Position numbers and translations under genes: made by a program. The notes below the pieces were generated by a model, which worked only from the letters and a program-made list of their open reading frames with translations, had not been told where the DNA came from and searched no databases. 64,000 nucleotides of DNA, from sequence record PZ583742.1. One strand, 5' to 3'. Origin of the DNA: a phage. Positions 704-6,143 of the stretch are shown here, in pieces; the first letter of the stretch is position 1, and each line of letters starts with the position of its first letter.

Positions 704-1719
704 AAATTTTAAATTTAGGTGATTGGCACTTAGGTGTCAAAGCTGACGACCCATGGGCTCAAAACATTCAACGCGATGGTATTTTACAGGCGATTGCATA
801 TTCCAAAGCGAATGGGATTAAAGTCTGGATTCAATATGGGGATATTTTTGACGTCCGTAAGGCCGTAACGCATAAGACGATGGAATTCAGCCGTGAGATT
901 ATGGAACTCCTTCGTGAAGCAGGAATTACTATGCACACGATAGTCGGGAACCATGACATGAATCTGAAGAATAAGATTCATCCTAATGCTATCACTGAAC
1001 TCCTGAATAAGTATGACCATGTTAAAATCTACGATAAGCCAACGACTGTTGATTTTGACGGTTGTCAGATTGATATGATTCCATGGATGTGTGACGAGAA
1101 CGCAACTGACATTCACCAACATATCAAAACTTCTGGGGCTGAATATTGCATCGGTCACTGGGAATTAACCGGGTTTTATTTCTATAAAGGATTGAAATCC
1201 CACGGACTTGAGCCTGATTTCCTTAAGAAGTACAAGCAAGTTTGGTCTGGTCACTTCCACACAATTTCAGAAGCTGCAAACGTTAAGTACATCGGGACAC
1301 CATGGACATTAACAGCAGGTGACGAGAACGACCCACGCGGGTTCTGGGAATTTGATACCGAAACCGAAGAGATGAAATTTATTCCGAATGAAACCACCTG
1401 GCATCGGAAGATTTTCTATCCAAACGAAACTATTAACTACGACGACTTCAAAGACTTATCAGTCCGTGTTATTGTAGAAAAAGTCGATAAAGACCTGACC
1501 AAGTTCGAATCTGAATTAGAAAAGCGTGTGCATGAATTGCGTGTTGTCAATAAGGTTGATAACAGTGTTGACACATCAGACTCTGATGAAGAGTTAGACA
1601 TAAAACGCTTAACAGATATGATGGCAGAATATATCGATGCATTACCTGACGCTAATGAGAAAGAATCAAAAGCTCTCAAAGCATTGGCCAATAAATTATA
1701 TCTTGAGGTGCAACCGTGA
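700..1719 (+). CDS. 47: recombination endonuclease subunit gp47 (Mre11/SbcD-like)
   Basis: N-terminal MKILNLGDWHLG and GNHD phosphoesterase motifs; 339 aa; followed by gp46. Confidence 0.95.
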   Translation: MKILNLGDWHLGVKADDPWAQNIQRDGILQAIAYSKANGIKVWIQYGDIFDVRKAVTHKTMEFSREIMELLREAGITMHTIVGNHDMNLKNKIHPNAITELLNKYDHVKIYDKPTTVDFDGCQIDMIPWMCDENATDIHQHIKTSGAEYCIGHWELTGFYFYKGLKSHGLEPDFLKKYKQVWSGHFHTISEAANVKYIGTPWTLTAGDENDPRGFWEFDTETEEMKFIPNETTWHRKIFYPNETINYDDFKDLSVRVIVEKVDKDLTKFESELEKRVHELRVVNKVDNSVDTSDSDEELDIKRLTDMMAEYIDALPDANEKESKALKALANKLYLEVQP

Positions 1720-1979
1720 GACTTTATGATTTTAATGAAGCGGGTCTTGAACATATCCGCGAATGTGCTGTGGTTGACGACGATAATCAACCGAATACTA
1801 TTAAGTATTGGTTTGAAGCTATCACTGACCGGGAAACTGGTCAACTTATCAAAGTCTATGTAGTCACCGATTGGGCCGTGGAATTTAGCTTTAATGTAAT
1901 GGAAGATGATACTCCAGAGACATTAATTCATATGGCTGAATCATGCATCAAGGATGCTTATTATGATGAAGACTTTTGA
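1716..1979 (+). CDS. hypothetical acidic protein (87 aa)
   Basis: GTG start overlapping gp47 stop; fills gap between 47 and 46. Confidence 0.35.
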   Translation: MRLYDFNEAGLEHIRECAVVDDDNQPNTIKYWFEAITDRETGQLIKVYVVTDWAVEFSFNVMEDDTPETLIHMAESCIKDAYYDEDF

Positions 1980-2172
1980 ATTTAATCTTGATGATGAATT
2001 TGTAGCAAATATTGATTATACCGAAGAAGATTCTAGATATGTCGGAATAATTTATATCACATCAAAAACGGCGCAGGGAGTGGTTTGCATGGCTGAATTT
2101 GATGAATGCTTTTTAGATTATGATGATATGATAGAATGGTCTAAAAGATACATTAAAAGGAATCTTTTGTGA
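1963..2172 (+). CDS. hypothetical acidic protein (69 aa)
   Basis: ATG with AAGGA upstream; stop overlaps gp46 start. Confidence 0.35.
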   Translation: MMKTFEFNLDDEFVANIDYTEEDSRYVGIIYITSKTAQGVVCMAEFDECFLDYDDMIEWSKRYIKRNLL

Positions 2173-3851
2173 AGACTTTTAAGCTTAAGAAAGTTATCTA
2201 TAAAAATATTATGTCGGTTGGTGCTCAACCGATTACTGTTGAACTGGATAAAGTCCAAAAAACTCTGGTCACCGGCAAGAATGGTGCGGGTAAATCTACG
2301 TTCCTTGAAGCGGTTACCTTTGCTATGTTCGGTAAGCCTTTCCGTGATGTAAAGAAAGGCCAGTTGATTAACTCGAGCAACAAAAAAGATATGCTCGTTG
2401 AATTGTGGATGGAATATGATGGAAAAGAATACTATATCAAACGCGGGCAAAAACCCAATGTTTTTGAAATCTCTTGTGGCGGTAAACGTCTTGATGAATC
2501 TGCCAGCAGTAAAGACTTCCAAGCGGAATTTGAACAGCTCATCGGAATGTCCTATGCAAGCTTCAAACAGATTGTCGTACTCGGCACAGCTGGATATACC
2601 CCTTTTATGGGCCTATCCACTCCTGCAAGAAGAAAACTTGTCGAAGACCTTTTAGAGGTTTCTGTACTGGCCGATATGGATAAGCTGAACAAATCTCTTA
2701 TCCGCGAAGTCAATAGTCAAATCCAGGTGATGGATGTGCAGCATGACGGGATTGTTCAACAGATTAAAATCTATCAGGACAACGAAGACCGTCAAAGAAA
2801 ATTATCAGGTGATAATCTGTTGCGGCTGCAAACGATGTATGATGAACTTGCCACAGAAGCACGTGGAATCAAGACAACTATCGAAGAAGCAACAACAAGA
2901 CTGACCGAGATAATCTTGGGAGAAGACCCTGAGCATGAACTCACGAAGCTAAAGCAGGAATCATTTCTGATTAAGTCGAAGATAGACGATTACCGAAAGG
3001 TTGTTGGTCTGTACGAGAAAGGTGGTTGTTGTCAGACTTGTGCCAGTCAGTTGCATCCAGGAGACCCTATTGTCGCCAGGATTGAGTCAAAGATTGAAGA
3101 ATGTAATGCATCAGCTGATAAGCATAAAGCTCGCCAGAATGCTGTTCAAGAGCAATTTGATACGTATTCTGCTGCAAGACAAAACCAGCGTACAATAGCC
3201 CAAGACATTCAAACTAAGAAACAAACCTTAATCCAGACTGTTGAAAAGGCTAAAAAGGTTAAAGCATTAATCGAGCAAGCTAAGTCAGAATTCATTGACC
3301 ATGCAGCAGACATTAAAATGCTTCAAGACCAGCTTGATAAAATAGTCAAACAGAAATCTGACCTTGTGATGGAAAAATATCAACGTGGCATCCTAACGGA
3401 TATGTTGAAAGATTCCGGTATCAAAGGCGCGATTATTAAGAAATATATTCCTATCTTTAATAAGCAGATAAACGCTTACCTTAAAGTTATGGAAGCTGAT
3501 TATAGCTTTACGTTAGATGAAGAGTTCAACGAAACTATTAAATCTCGTGGACGTGAAGACTTCAGCTATGCATCATTTAGCCAGGGTGAAAAAGCTCGTA
3601 TCGATATTGCATTGCTGTTTACATGGCGTGATATTGCTGCGAAAGTATCTGGTGTTAATATTAACACCTTGATTCTGGATGAAGTTTTTGACTCGGCCAC
3701 TGATGTAGAGGGTGTTAAAGCAATTGCTACCATCCTGAACAAATTGGAAGACACCAACATCTTTATTATCAGTCACCGAGACCATGACCCGGAAGCATAC
3801 GGGCAACATCTCCAGATGAAAAAAGTTGGTCGATTCACTGTTATGGAATAA
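2169..3851 (+). CDS. 46: recombination endonuclease subunit gp46 (Rad50/SbcC-like ATPase)
   Basis: Walker A GKNGAGKST, central coiled coil with CxxC zinc hook, Walker B LILDEVFD; 560 aa; GTG start. Confidence 0.95.
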   Translation: MKTFKLKKVIYKNIMSVGAQPITVELDKVQKTLVTGKNGAGKSTFLEAVTFAMFGKPFRDVKKGQLINSSNKKDMLVELWMEYDGKEYYIKRGQKPNVFEISCGGKRLDESASSKDFQAEFEQLIGMSYASFKQIVVLGTAGYTPFMGLSTPARRKLVEDLLEVSVLADMDKLNKSLIREVNSQIQVMDVQHDGIVQQIKIYQDNEDRQRKLSGDNLLRLQTMYDELATEARGIKTTIEEATTRLTEIILGEDPEHELTKLKQESFLIKSKIDDYRKVVGLYEKGGCCQTCASQLHPGDPIVARIESKIEECNASADKHKARQNAVQEQFDTYSAARQNQRTIAQDIQTKKQTLIQTVEKAKKVKALIEQAKSEFIDHAADIKMLQDQLDKIVKQKSDLVMEKYQRGILTDMLKDSGIKGAIIKKYIPIFNKQINAYLKVMEADYSFTLDEEFNETIKSRGREDFSYASFSQGEKARIDIALLFTWRDIAAKVSGVNINTLILDEVFDSATDVEGVKAIATILNKLEDTNIFIISHRDHDPEAYGQHLQMKKVGRFTVME

Positions 3852-3875
3852 TGCTTTAAACAAGGATGTTATAAT
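3852..3875 (+). promoter_or_regulatory. MotA-box middle promoter candidate
   Basis: TGCTTTA 3852-3858, TATAAT 3870-3875. Confidence 0.45.
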
Positions 3876-3885
3876 AGAGGCTATT

Positions 3886-4077
3886 ATGGCTGACTTCTTA
3901 ACCGGGCAGCATTTACTGGCTGTCCCTGAAATTAAACGGTATGTGTTAGTTAATACCTTTTCGAAAGATGAACACCTTGTTACTGAACGTGACTTACAAA
4001 ACGCTTTCGGTGAAGAATATGTTAAAATAATCGCGAACAGACACAATGCCTGGTTTGCATATGAATACTTTGATTAA
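3886..4077 (+). CDS. hypothetical protein (63 aa)
   Basis: ATG 3886 with AGAGG upstream, just after the middle promoter. Confidence 0.4.
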   Translation: MADFLTGQHLLAVPEIKRYVLVNTFSKDEHLVTERDLQNAFGEEYVKIIANRHNAWFAYEYFD

Positions 4078-4101
4078 TTGATAATGAATAGAGAGAATAT
4101 T

Positions 4102-4509
4102 ATGAACAACGTAACTGCTAAAGATATCCAAGTTAAAACCATCCGCACCGACGCTAACCCACACAACCAAAACCGCATCCGCAAATCCTGGGTCCTGGCA
4201 TGTGATGAAGCATCTGCTGCCCGTCTGCAGTCTCTGCCGCAAGAAATTAAATTCATGCTGTACGGTGTGATTGATACTGATGTATCTGATAAGTGGATTG
4301 AACTGATGCGTAATCACTACAACGATTCACTGGCTGCTGGTGCTAAACTGGTTATCGACCGTGACGGTTCCGAACGTCTCGAAGATGATTACTGTGTTGA
4401 CTTCGACGACCACCTGGTCCAAGCTGGTTCTATTATTGCTGCGCAACTTCCAGAGTATATTGAATCTCTTCCGGAAGCTATCCGCAAACAAATGGCAGTT
4501 GTTGCGTGA
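4102..4509 (+). CDS. RpbA-like protein (by position between 46 and 45 and by size)
   Basis: 135-aa ORF with strongly biased codon use; start choice (4084 vs 4102) uncertain. Confidence 0.4.
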   Translation: MNNVTAKDIQVKTIRTDANPHNQNRIRKSWVLACDEASAARLQSLPQEIKFMLYGVIDTDVSDKWIELMRNHYNDSLAAGAKLVIDRDGSERLEDDYCVDFDDHLVQAGSIIAAQLPEYIESLPEAIRKQMAVVA

Positions 4510-5393
4510 ATTTGATTTATAAAATAACCTTTATAACAAGGGAACAAAATAATGAATTCCCTTGTTATTATATTGGTTCAAAGGTTGATACGACATTTAA
4601 TGGCCAAAATATTCTCGATAAAAATAATAAAATTTATACAGGTTCTCCGAATTCAAAATATACTACGCTGTATAATGAATTAATTGATAGCGGTGACTAT
4701 ATTGTTACTATCATTGGGGAAACAAAACAGGACCCAAGGAAAATAGAAAATATTTTTCAAATGTCAGTTAAAGCTGTAACCAATGAGAAATACTTTAATA
4801 AAACGTATGCACACGACAAAAGCCGCTATGATGCTCCTGGATATGCTCCATACCGAAACTTGAAAACGGGTAAAGTTGTTAAATTACATCCATCTGAACT
4901 TACATCTGATTATGTTGGTGTTCGTAAAGATTGTTCAATTTCAGATAAGCACATTCAAGCAATTAAAGACTTCCAAAAAGAATATTGGACTGACGAAGCT
5001 CGACAAGCAAGGTCTGTTGAAGTCAAAAATCGTTATAAAGATGTTGAGTATGCTTTAAAATTCAAAGCTATAATGAATACATCTGAAGTATATGAAAAAT
5101 ATTTAAAATCAATTACTGAATATTGGAATAATTCAGATAATAGAATAAAGGCTTCAAAACGAGCAACCGAACGAAATGCCAACCCTGAATTTAAAGAAAA
5201 ATTTAGGAAATCTAAAGCAAGAGGAACCTGGTTACAGTATGAAGATGAACTTAAAGCATTGTGGAATGCTTTAGGCCAACCAGGGTATATTAAGTTTAGA
5301 AAACACGCCATTGAACATGGGTTTAATGATGAAAACTATCAGGGTGCAATCCGGTCCTGGTCAAATTATTATGTTAATAGGAAAATGAAATGA
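4506..5393 (+). CDS. GIY-YIG-like homing endonuclease (Seg-like), free-standing
   Basis: N-terminal LIYKITF...CYYIGSK motif pair; AT-rich ORF wedged between conserved genes; GTG start. Confidence 0.5.
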   Translation: MNLIYKITFITREQNNEFPCYYIGSKVDTTFNGQNILDKNNKIYTGSPNSKYTTLYNELIDSGDYIVTIIGETKQDPRKIENIFQMSVKAVTNEKYFNKTYAHDKSRYDAPGYAPYRNLKTGKVVKLHPSELTSDYVGVRKDCSISDKHIQAIKDFQKEYWTDEARQARSVEVKNRYKDVEYALKFKAIMNTSEVYEKYLKSITEYWNNSDNRIKASKRATERNANPEFKEKFRKSKARGTWLQYEDELKALWNALGQPGYIKFRKHAIEHGFNDENYQGAIRSWSNYYVNRKMK

Positions 5394-6085
5394 AATTTAG
5401 TCGTGACACCATCGCAGTTTTGAAAAACTTCACCTCCATCTACTCTGGCATTATGCTTAAACCAGGCAATACCATCCTAACTCGTTCTGTAACTGGAGCG
5501 TCATATGGTGAATCTGAAATCAATGATACAATCGACTTTGAAGCGGCAATTTATGACCTGAACGGCTTCTTAAGTATCCTGGGCCTGGTAACTGACCAAG
5601 CTGAAGTATCTCTGTCTGAAGATGCATCGAATATCATTATCAAAGACCAACGTTCAACGATTCACTGGCCTGCAGCTGACCCGAGCACTATCGTGTTCCC
5701 TGCTAAGAAGATTCCTTTCCCGGTAGCTAAGGTTATCTTCGACCTGAAAGGCAGTGACCTGCAGCAGCTTCTGCGTGTGGCTGGTGGTTTGTCTCTGGAC
5801 ACTTTTGCAATCACCAACAAAGACGGTAAGATTGTTATCCATGGTTATAACCAGCTCGAAGATAAAGAATTAGCGCGTCCATTGTATTCCCTGGTGTGTG
5901 GCGATTACGAAGGCGATGCAGCGTTTAAATTTATCATTAACAAACTGAATATGAAAATGATTCCGGCTGATTACCGTGTTATGCTTTGGGCGAAAGATGA
6001 TAAATTTGCTACGAAGTTTGAAGGCACACAAGCAAGCTATGTGATTGCAATGGAACAAGGCTCTAGCCACGAATTCCAAGATTAA
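5390..6085 (+). CDS. 45: sliding clamp gp45
   Basis: 231 aa, similar to T4 gp45 along its length (e.g. FPAKKIPFPVA, LWAKD). Confidence 0.95.
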   Translation: MKFSRDTIAVLKNFTSIYSGIMLKPGNTILTRSVTGASYGESEINDTIDFEAAIYDLNGFLSILGLVTDQAEVSLSEDASNIIIKDQRSTIHWPAADPSTIVFPAKKIPFPVAKVIFDLKGSDLQQLLRVAGGLSLDTFAITNKDGKIVIHGYNQLEDKELARPLYSLVCGDYEGDAAFKFIINKLNMKMIPADYRVMLWAKDDKFATKFEGTQASYVIAMEQGSSHEFQD

Positions 6086-6088
6086 TAA

Positions 6089-6106
6089 ATGGGGCTTCGG
6101 CCCCAT
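6089..6106 (+). other. UUCG-tetraloop hairpin (no T run)
   Basis: ATGGGGC-TTCG-GCCCCAT between genes 45 and 44. Confidence 0.5.
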
Positions 6107-6143
6107 GGAGTACAAAGTAGAAACTAATATGAGGAAAATAATA

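Follow-up and report, generated by a model that had tools for sequence, protein, structure and literature searches.

The closest described systems to the gene treated here are the Seg enzymes of phage T4, where SegG, SegA, SegE and SegF are active free-standing endonucleases that cut a conserved gene neighboring their own (PMC2988022). SegG, which is classed as a GIY-YIG enzyme in the literature (PMC2988022), is a protein of 210 amino acids (aa) that is encoded by gene 32.1 between genes 59 and 32 and has gene 32 as its target, while the targets of SegA and SegF are uvsX and gene 56, respectively. I-TevI (PDB 1MK0, 1LN0, 1I3J), which is intron-encoded and the archetype of the GIY-YIG homing endonucleases, has a two-part design, with a catalytic domain and a C-terminal DNA-binding region. 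Here, we describe a gene in a stretch of 64,000 nucleotides (nt) of phage DNA (sequence record PZ583742.1; this whole stretch is called the window) that comes from a T4-like coliphage and that megablast places in the genus Gaprivervirus (Straboviridae, Tevenvirinae), with the T-even phages of the VR7/SP18 group. The gene is an open reading frame (ORF) of 295 codons, encoding 295 aa, that lies on the plus strand between rpbA, the gene for the RNA polymerase-binding protein, and gene 45, the gene for the sliding clamp. Comparison with relatives that carry or lack it, together with profile searches and structure models, makes it quite probable that this ORF encodes a functional, free-standing homing endonuclease of the type of the T4 Seg enzymes, in which a SegG-like nuclease is joined to a SegA-like DNA-binding end.

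The initial annotation, made from the sequence alone, had described an AT-rich ORF between rpbA and gene 45 with a GTG overlapping the preceding stop codon, and the locus is built exactly so. The start codon (GTG, 4506–4508) overlaps the rpbA stop codon (TGA, 4507–4509) in the tetranucleotide GTGA, the stop codon (TGA, 5391–5393) overlaps the ATG of gene 45 (5390–5392) in ATGA, and the GC content is 0.29–0.34 within the ORF vs. 0.40–0.46 in the flanks. The impression that this position is unlike those of the T4 seg genes is also borne out, as T4 has no ORF here and just a 55-nt spacer separates its rpbA from gene 45. The gene resembles segG in being free-standing, poor in promoters and placed directly ahead of an essential replication gene that has the same orientation, and both enzymes are expected to target the neighboring gene; they differ in site and target (59/32 and gene 32 for SegG, rpbA/45 and presumably gene 45 here), and in that the activity of SegG has been demonstrated while that of the window protein is predicted. 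No paralogues of the endonuclease were found elsewhere in the window. As one more Seg-type free-standing homing endonuclease the gene changes no concept, but the rpbA/45 junction would be an uncharacterized homing site that recurs in three T-even genera and is not occupied in T4. A literature search for the VR26/VR7 endonuclease, or for rpbA combined with homing endonuclease, found no paper describing the rpbA/45 site.

The cassette at the rpbA/45 junction

Among 34 Gaprivervirus records matching the window, three carry the ORF (VR26, which is entered twice, and TH15, with 95–96% nucleotide identity), and the remaining records match the window in two pieces across a gap (megablast). The boundaries of the insert were set by anchoring on conserved 20-mers on either side in three carriers (the window, VR26, and TH15) and five non-carriers (SP18, VR20, TH41, VR7, and DK-13). 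It had been suggested in the initial annotation that relatives lacking the insert could define its site, and the junction indeed yields exact boundaries: the anchors lie 905 nt apart in all three carriers vs. 52–55 nt in the five non-carriers. The 905-nt cassette takes the place of those 52–55 nt, which run from the rpbA stop codon through the spacer to nt 21 of gene 45; rpbA ends in TGA in carriers and in TAA in relatives without the insert. No terminal inverted repeats or target-site duplications were found at the cassette. A transposon or insertion sequence was rejected as an explanation, given the lack of terminal inverted repeats, target duplication and transposase, as was an intron or intein, given that the insert is intergenic and both adjoining ORFs are intact. 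The first codons of the insert (4510–4519, AATTTGATTT) are similar to the beginning of the non-carrier spacer (TTTTGATTTG), a likeness that could reflect chance in AT-rich DNA or microhomology from the original insertion.

The flanks of the cassette (600 nt to the left and 750 nt to the right) were aligned for the same three carriers and five non-carriers. In these 1350 nt, the only differences that are fixed between carriers and non-carriers lie at nt 9, 10, 11, 13, 14, 15, and 21 of gene 45, which begins with ATG AAA TTC TCT AAA GAC ACT in non-carriers and with ATG AAA TTT AGT CGT GAC ACC in carriers, with the effect that a Ser codon switches codon family and a Lys becomes Arg. The other two genera also differ at this place. 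In Mosigvirus, the carrier AV116 has CTT AGC CGT GAA ACC GTA AAT where the non-carrier JS09 has CTG TCT AAA GAT ACT ATC GCT, and in the Tequatrovirus carriers GiZh and G10400 codons 3 and 6–11 of gene 45 are altered compared to T4. The sequence ATGAAAYTSTCTAAAGAYACT is conserved in the non-carriers of all three genera and altered in every carrier allele. We propose that the patch marks the target of the endonuclease and makes the carrier allele resistant. The target is placed at the 5' end of gene 45 because the DNA that separates a homing gene from its cut site is necessarily co-converted and because a carrier must escape its own enzyme, and the simplest reading of the alignments is that recognition, and probably cleavage, would involve the first ~30 nt of gene 45. 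Together, the patch and the replaced spacer would make carriers immune. By comparison of these alleles, the presumed target is narrowed to about 20 nt where the sliding-clamp gene begins.

The cassette does not travel with a fixed background. On the rpbA side (600 nt) the window differs from the non-carrier DK-13 by 2 mismatches vs. 35–37 for the carriers VR26 and TH15, and on the gene 45 side (750 nt) it differs from the non-carrier SP18 by 21 mismatches, 7 of which are the patch, vs. 29–33 for VR26 and TH15. The flanks of the window are thus nearest to non-carriers. The cassette is shared between different backgrounds and the tracts linked to it are very short, which implies that it has probably moved or been exchanged recently. 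Full-length homologs with 55–63% identity occupy the same slot between rpbA and gene 45 in Tequatrovirus (GiZh, G10400, SHBML-50-1, and others) and in Mosigvirus (AV116 and others), and in Tequatrovirus about 25 of roughly 505 records are carriers. The locus has features expected of a homing gene: it is intergenic, follows the orientation of its hosts, occurs sporadically among close relatives and has precise boundaries, and the carrier allele, presumably resistant, differs at the presumed recognition site. Two copies at rpbA/45 are frameshifted (G2285 near codon 176 and EC121 near codon 20) and both keep the carrier-type gene 45 allele; the frameshifts may represent decay or homopolymer sequencing errors, and frameshifted copies are as expected of the life cycle of a homing gene.

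Searches beyond these genomes added no carriers. The carrier-type gene 45 allele was found in IMG/VR in VR26 itself alone, and in metagenomes it gave six matches, which are taken as chance because none of them encodes gp45, RpbA or the endonuclease; a locus search with gp45 returned just 10 loci and no further carriers. Members of the protein family do occur at other sites; in HY03 and the Proteus phage Pm5461, for instance, they split uvsX. The uvsX endonucleases of these two phages share the same N-terminal ~150 residues (34–38% identity; phrog_7504 at E 1e-25), and differ from the window protein in having a NUMOD3-type C-terminal half and in splitting uvsX into two ORFs, whereas the window gene is intergenic. 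The two uvsX halves are annotated as ‘DNA repair protein’ and ‘recombinase’ (HY03 stretch 1528–4013; Pm5461 stretch 1534–3861), which is possibly a case of genes-in-pieces.

The SegG-type domain and the helical half

Residues 1–103 match phrog_7504 (‘homing endonuclease’; E 3.9e-14, profile positions 1–101 of 210), which is identified as the SegG family because T4 SegG matches it end to end (E 1e-133). BLASTP aligns the window protein with T4 SegG at 34% identity over 102 aa (E 8e-12). A hidden Markov model (HMM) of the N-terminal domain of the family finds T4 SegG at E 1.4e-35 in a test set of six sequences, and in the same six-sequence test reaches SegA and SegE weakly (E about 3e-4) with consistent alignments, so that the catalytic domains of the SegA and SegF group are only distant relatives. 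A profile search of large protein collections returned about 120–300 clusters with the same N-terminal ~150 residues. NUMOD3 modules, which bind DNA and are characteristic of homing endonucleases, are present in 103 of 119 aligned family members, Pfam SegE_GIY-YIG (PF19835) is touched weakly by 15 of the 119 (best E 3.8e-4), and PF01541 by 3 (E 0.21). Conservation among 131 family sequences is 100% at Y5 (counted over 128 aligned sequences), P19, Y22, G24, E81, and N98, 99% at K26, Y44, and S47, 97% at I23, G46, and R/K126, and 93% at R12; E81 and N98 are the sole strictly invariant columns across the 119–131 sequences. These comparisons place the N-terminal domain in the SegG clade, departing from the canonical GIY-YIG domain in its Arg and in its motif spacing. 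‘GIY-YIG-like’, the term first given to this free-standing endonuclease, is therefore the right level of description, the domain being a clear homolog of that of T4 SegG.

The two motifs on which that term was based are IYKITF (residues 4–9) and YYIGS (residues 21–25). In the models, Y5 lies in strand 2–8, which corresponds to the GIY strand, and Y22-I23-G24 in strand 21–26, with Y22 and G24 as the predicted equivalents of Y17 and G19 of I-TevI. E81 is situated in helix 78–87 after the third strand, and E81 and N98 would correspond to E75 and N90 of I-TevI. An alignment by hhalign pairs Y5 with Y6, Y22 with Y17, and N98 with N90, and sets E81 one position off E75. The GIY-to-YIG spacing of 16 residues, in which a short helix (10–14) is inserted, exceeds the canonical spacing of about 10–11. 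This long IY-to-YIG spacing is identical in T4 SegG (IVYWFTFEDRVKNKTPPYYYIGSK) and is a trait of the family; the two proteins also share the conserved R12 and P19 and the motif YYIGSK. With SegA and SegE the window protein shares the second motif ‘D…Y-x-G-S’.

The AF2 models are confident, with a pLDDT of 89 for the full-length protein and a pLDDT of 91 and pTM of 0.84 for the N-terminal domain. They place strand 2–8, helix 10–14, strand 21–26, a beta-rich insert, helix 54–62, strand 66–73, and helix 78–87 in this order, followed by N98. As modeled, the elements come in the same order as in I-TevI (b-b-a-b-a), except that the beta-rich insert (residues 27–53) stands in the place of R27 and its helix. 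A Foldseek search of BFVD, a collection of predicted viral structures, returned ‘SegG’ at 4e-10 and VR7 gp32.1 at 1e-7, as well as ‘GIY-YIG domain-containing’ (4e-5), ‘SegE-like GIY-YIG’ (7e-4), ‘SegD’ and (group I) intron endonucleases; the matches named GIY-YIG, SegE-like, SegD or intron endonuclease have E-values of 4e-5 to 8e-3 and a probability of 0.98–1.00 in all but one.

Beyond residue ~101 the window protein and SegG are unrelated. It continues with a small beta module (residues 104–146) and a long all-helical half, and the C-terminal profile has no SegG match. The beta module, in which K123 and R/K126 are conserved, is common to the NUMOD3-bearing relatives and not to T4 SegG, and is probably a linker or DNA-contact element. 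The C-terminal half is modeled as ten helices, with pLDDT mostly 86–96 up to residue ~230 and lower beyond. Residues 247–278 (5244–5339) match the C-terminus of T4 SegA at 41% over 32 aa (E 6e-6 in a single BLASTP comparison), the segment ‘…ELKALWNALGQPGYIKFRKHAIEHGF…’ of the window protein resembling ‘…KIKEIWENSGKSGAIKLKKLAIEAGF…’ of SegA. The C-terminal profile matches SegA and, more weakly, SegF, to whose C-terminus and linker the window protein shows a weaker resemblance. No Pfam family, NUMOD3 included, is matched by this half, and an internal repeat within it (residues 155–200 vs. 200–245) is not significant (E 0.14). The helical half is presumed to be the sequence-specific DNA-binding region. 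SegA and SegF have the same modular layout of nuclease, linker and DNA-binding end, and a C-terminal DNA-binding region is also found in I-TevI, the NUMOD3 linker of which recurs in relatives of the family (1i3j, E 1e-4). SegA matches Pfam GIY-YIG (3e-9) and NUMOD3, unlike the window protein, which matches neither. Judged by these matches, the protein appears to combine, by shuffling, a nuclease of SegG type with a DNA-binding end of SegA/F type, a natural case of what the engineering of GIY-YIG nucleases tries to imitate by exchanging modules.

Selection, expression and rival readings

Compared to VR26 and TH15, the ORF shows 96–97% identity with 32–33 synonymous vs. 9–10 non-synonymous differences, which corresponds to a ratio of non-synonymous to synonymous substitution rates (dN/dS) of 0.06–0.07. 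Between genera dN/dS is 0.13–0.24, with synonymous sites that are saturated between the three genera. The ORF is a real gene under strong purifying selection, the catalytic domain included. The GTG start is supported because the Tequatrovirus and Mosigvirus homologs at the same site have an ATG at the aligned codon. The annotation of these genes in public records is incomplete. The VR26 copy in GenBank (KP007362; VR26 stretch 2206–3093) is called from an internal ATG as a ‘putative DNA endonuclease’ of 210 aa, which drops the 85 N-terminal codons that hold Y5, Y22-I-G and E81 and thereby the catalytic domain, and in the GiZh record the endonuclease gene has no annotated coding sequence.

The GTG of the endonuclease is not preceded by a Shine-Dalgarno sequence, and coupling to rpbA is therefore its likely route of translation. 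The end of the ORF serves gene 45 as well: its last codons include the Shine-Dalgarno-like AGGAAAA, and an ORF ending in ‘..AATAGGAAA..’ with the ribosome-binding site of gene 45 is kept in copies of all three genera. Two MotA-box-like motifs lie farther upstream in the ORF, 339 and 123 nt from gene 45. The distal motif (TGCTTTA, 11 nt, TATAAT) is also found in VR26, TH15 and the Mosigvirus AV116, and the proximal one (AATGCTTTA, 12 nt, TATATT) is kept in the same three phages and absent from GiZh. They are candidate middle promoters, in an arrangement that is the same as that of the gene 32 promoters inside segG (PMC2988022); both overlap conserved codons, and their conservation is not independent evidence. 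The pattern TGCTTNA-N12-TANNNT occurs 9 times in the window vs. 1.06 expected by shuffling (515, 3319, 5267, 31329, 44827, 56570, 58606, and 62394 on the plus strand and 5234 on the minus strand), an excess that makes most of them likely to be genuine middle promoters of the phage. No late promoter (TATAAATA) was found in or near the ORF, and sigma-70-like sites and terminators are at chance level between 3700 and 6300. Codons 10–21 contain a perfect 12-bp stem-loop (ATAACAAGGGAA / TTCCCTTGTTAT, with a 12-nt loop) with an RNA fold z-score of −2.4, in the part of the ORF that codes for the loop joining the GIY and YIG motifs. It is kept in VR26, a different 10-bp hairpin is found at the equivalent place in Tequatrovirus, and the Mosigvirus copy has none; possibly it attenuates expression.

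How the gene would spread can be outlined from these data. It would share the rpbA-45 transcript with its neighbors, and ribosomes reinitiating at the GTGA would translate it at a low level. Where a relative without the gene infects the same cell, the protein would, as the comparative data suggest, bind the rpbA/45 junction of that relative, with key contacts around nt ~7–30 of gene 45 (…AAA YTS TCT AAA GAY ACT…), a stretch that the non-carriers of three genera have in common, and would make a double-strand break, as expected of the family. Characterized Seg enzymes leave 2-nt 3' overhangs, and recombination-dependent repair after the break is established for T4 homing. Such repair would copy the carrier allele into the break and move the 905-nt cassette, sometimes with flanking markers. 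The replaced spacer and the recoded codons 3–7 of gene 45 would protect the carrier itself, and expression of gene 45 would be preserved by the ribosome-binding site, and possibly the embedded middle promoters, that the cassette supplies.

Several results weigh against the reading of the ORF as an active GIY-YIG-like homing endonuclease that targets gene 45. A GTG start without ribosome-binding site may mean very low expression, the patch could have hitch-hiked as donor sequence instead of determining immunity, and the sample is small, with three carriers vs. five non-carriers in Gaprivervirus and 1–2 pairs in the other genera. With regard to the domain, neither the whole protein nor the N-terminal domain alone matches Pfam GIY-YIG or SegE_GIY-YIG at E<=10, Foldseek of the full-length and domain models against the PDB returned nothing at E<1, hhalign against a shallow alignment of I-TevI, SegA and SegE gave a probability of just 28%, and residues 27–80 of 131 sequences contain no Arg-rich column that could represent the canonical catalytic Arg (R27 of I-TevI). 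Searches of Pfam, NCBIfam and PDB sequences with the single protein gave no match either, and when the PDB was searched with a profile of the aligned family, I-TevI was reached in its NUMOD3/DNA-binding region alone, via the C-termini of relatives, and not in its catalytic domain, with which the window protein has no detectable sequence or Foldseek match. The template for hhalign was very shallow, as a word-indexed search with the I-TevI catalytic domain had supplied 9 close fragments only. As a control, the proven nucleases T4 SegG and SegF have zero Pfam matches at E<=10, while SegA and SegE do match, and the sequences of T4 SegG, SegA and SegE are also without the canonical Arg. The initial annotation had named a profile search for the GIY-YIG domain as the check on its proposal, and a lack of catalytic residues, given the long motif spacing, as what would speak against it. 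On the first count, the PHROG match to the SegG family speaks for the proposal and a Pfam GIY-YIG match is missing, as it is with SegG and SegF. The second count is mostly in favor of the proposal: both Tyr residues, as well as the Gly, Glu and Asn, are invariant or almost invariant in 131 family members, and the long spacing is shared by SegG, while the Arg is absent at its expected place.

That the N-terminal domain is a separate fold with a chance ‘IY…YIG’ look-alike, and with other chemistry or no nuclease activity, is suggested by the Foldseek result for two confident models, although GIY-YIG structures including I-TevI and UvrC are in the PDB (1MK0 and 1LN0 were confirmed present), by the Pfam result, and by the beta-rich insert in place of the Arg helix. 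We nevertheless judge it very unlikely in view of the I-TevI-like order of b1(GIY)-b2(YIG)-a-b3-a(Glu) followed by Asn, the residue pairs aligned by hhalign, the family members that touch SegE_GIY-YIG, the consistent reach of the profile to SegA and SegE, the BFVD matches at a probability of 1.00 that include GIY-YIG, SegE-like GIY-YIG, SegD, and group I intron endonuclease names, and the fact that SegG itself is a proven endonuclease. Taking the domain as GIY-YIG-like, we put forward tentatively, and with more doubt than confidence, that the SegG-type domain (at least ~300 clusters at 50% identity, including T4 SegG) may be a structurally distinct GIY-YIG offshoot that lost the Arg-bearing helix and moved its role to R12 on the inserted helix, perhaps with K26; these two and R/K126 are the conserved basic residues elsewhere in the protein. 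If true, a relocated Arg would explain the long motif spacing and the failure of the Pfam and PDB searches, and would represent a new, structurally uncharacterized variant of catalysis within a classic nuclease family. A branch such as that of SegG, without canonical Arg, Pfam match or solved structural match, is a gap worth closing for both annotation and GIY-YIG chemistry.

Two further alternatives were weighed. The endonuclease may be active with its site elsewhere, in the 3' end of rpbA, in the spacer or deep in gene 45, in which case the patch at nt 9–21 would be co-converted donor sequence. SegG cleaves away from its insertion site and co-converts the interval (Liu et al., 2003, as cited in PMC2988022), the whole spacer is replaced and the rpbA stop codon changed in carriers, and the Tequatrovirus patch (codons 3 and 6–11) overlaps the Gaprivervirus patch (codons 3–7) just partly. 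We hold this to be rather improbable: beyond the spacer and the patch, no fixed difference exists over 600 nt to the left and 750 nt to the right, so that a farther site would be identical in carriers and would be cut, and it is ATGAAAYTSTCTAAAGAYACT that is conserved in the non-carriers and altered in all carrier alleles. A second possibility is that the gene is a domesticated or decaying relic that no longer cuts or moves and is kept for the ribosome-binding site, and perhaps promoters, that it supplies to the essential gene 45 or as a DNA-binding regulator. It would accommodate the absent Arg and the missing Pfam and PDB matches, the Shine-Dalgarno and the two MotA-box-like motifs inside the ORF, the frameshifted copies, and the presence of the gene at one site across three genera with saturated synonymous sites, and embedded promoters favor the retention of seg genes (PMC2988022). 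The relic is unlikely, more so than a site elsewhere, as purifying selection extends over the whole ORF, the putative catalytic residues are all invariant in the family, the proven SegG and SegF escape Pfam too and SegG, SegA and SegE also lack the Arg, the flanks imply recent movement or exchange, and non-carrier relatives express gene 45 without the cassette. An active SegG-like endonuclease directed at the start of gene 45 is the reading that we prefer to each of these.

Feature positions and adjoining observations

Positions of the endonuclease gene, its parts and its neighbors in the window.
Feature	Position	Strand	Basis
Endonuclease ORF, 295 codons	4506..5393	+	GTG start, TGA stop; dN/dS; same-site homologs
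Whole mobile cassette, 905 nt	4506..5410	+	anchored comparison of 3 carriers vs. 5 non-carriers
SegG-type (divergent GIY-YIG) catalytic domain, residues 1–103	4506..4814	+	PHROG, profile, BLASTP, conservation, AF2, BFVD
Key residues of catalytic domain: Y5, R12, P19, Y22-I23-G24-S25-K26, Y44-x-G46-S47, E81, N98			
Small beta module, residues 104–146, strands 114–118, 124–127, 136–138	4815..4943	+	AF2, conservation, extent of SegG match
All-helical C-terminal half, residues 147–295	4944..5390	+	AF2, BLASTP, profile matches
Perfect 12-bp stem-loop in ORF	4533..4568	+	repeat search
MotA-box-like motif, distal to gene 45	5051..5074	+	pattern search
MotA-box-like motif, proximal to gene 45	5267..5291	+	pattern search
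Shine-Dalgarno-like AGGAAAA for gene 45	5379..5385	+	last codons of endonuclease ORF
Patch of 7 substitutions, gene 45 nt 9–21	5398..5410	+	flank alignment, 3 carriers vs. 5 non-carriers
rpbA (RNA polymerase-binding protein), upstream host gene	4084..4509	+	Pfam/PHROG; start set by analogy with VR26 annotation
Gene 45 (sliding clamp), downstream host gene, probable target gene	5390..6085	+	Pfam, PHROG

The identity of the two neighbors is based on matches of the upstream product to RpbA (Pfam PF10789 at E 2.5e-44; phrog_1285 at E 2e-54) and of the downstream product to the gp45 sliding clamp (PF09116 at E 2.5e-36, PF02916 at E 6e-14, and phrog_223 at E 1.4e-77). In the wider gene order, gp46 is encoded farther upstream of rpbA, and gp44, gp62 and regA downstream of gene 45. 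Within rpbA, differences among Gapriverviruses are clustered at ~4210–4340 (columns 307–431 of the left-flank alignment), and a naive ungapped codon comparison of rpbA between the window and VR26 gives 23 non-synonymous vs. 4 synonymous differences, an apparent excess that may reflect a local indel or frame offset in the ungapped comparison or a truly variable segment.

VR20, which lacks the rpbA/45 insert, has another ORF of 196 aa in the gap between genes 45 and 44 (VR20 stretch 2953–3543) that matches phrog_314 (‘homing endonuclease’, E 2e-17), so that in this genus the clamp/clamp-loader cluster accommodates no fewer than two alternative homing genes. In the window, a GC-rich palindromic stem-loop (ATGGGGCTTCGGCCCCAT, plus strand, 6089–6106) lies directly 3' of the gene 45 stop codon. 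The similarity between the window and VR26 stops near 6140, just past this stem-loop, while TH41, SP18 and others still match, and the stem-loop may mark a boundary of recombination between genes 45 and 44.

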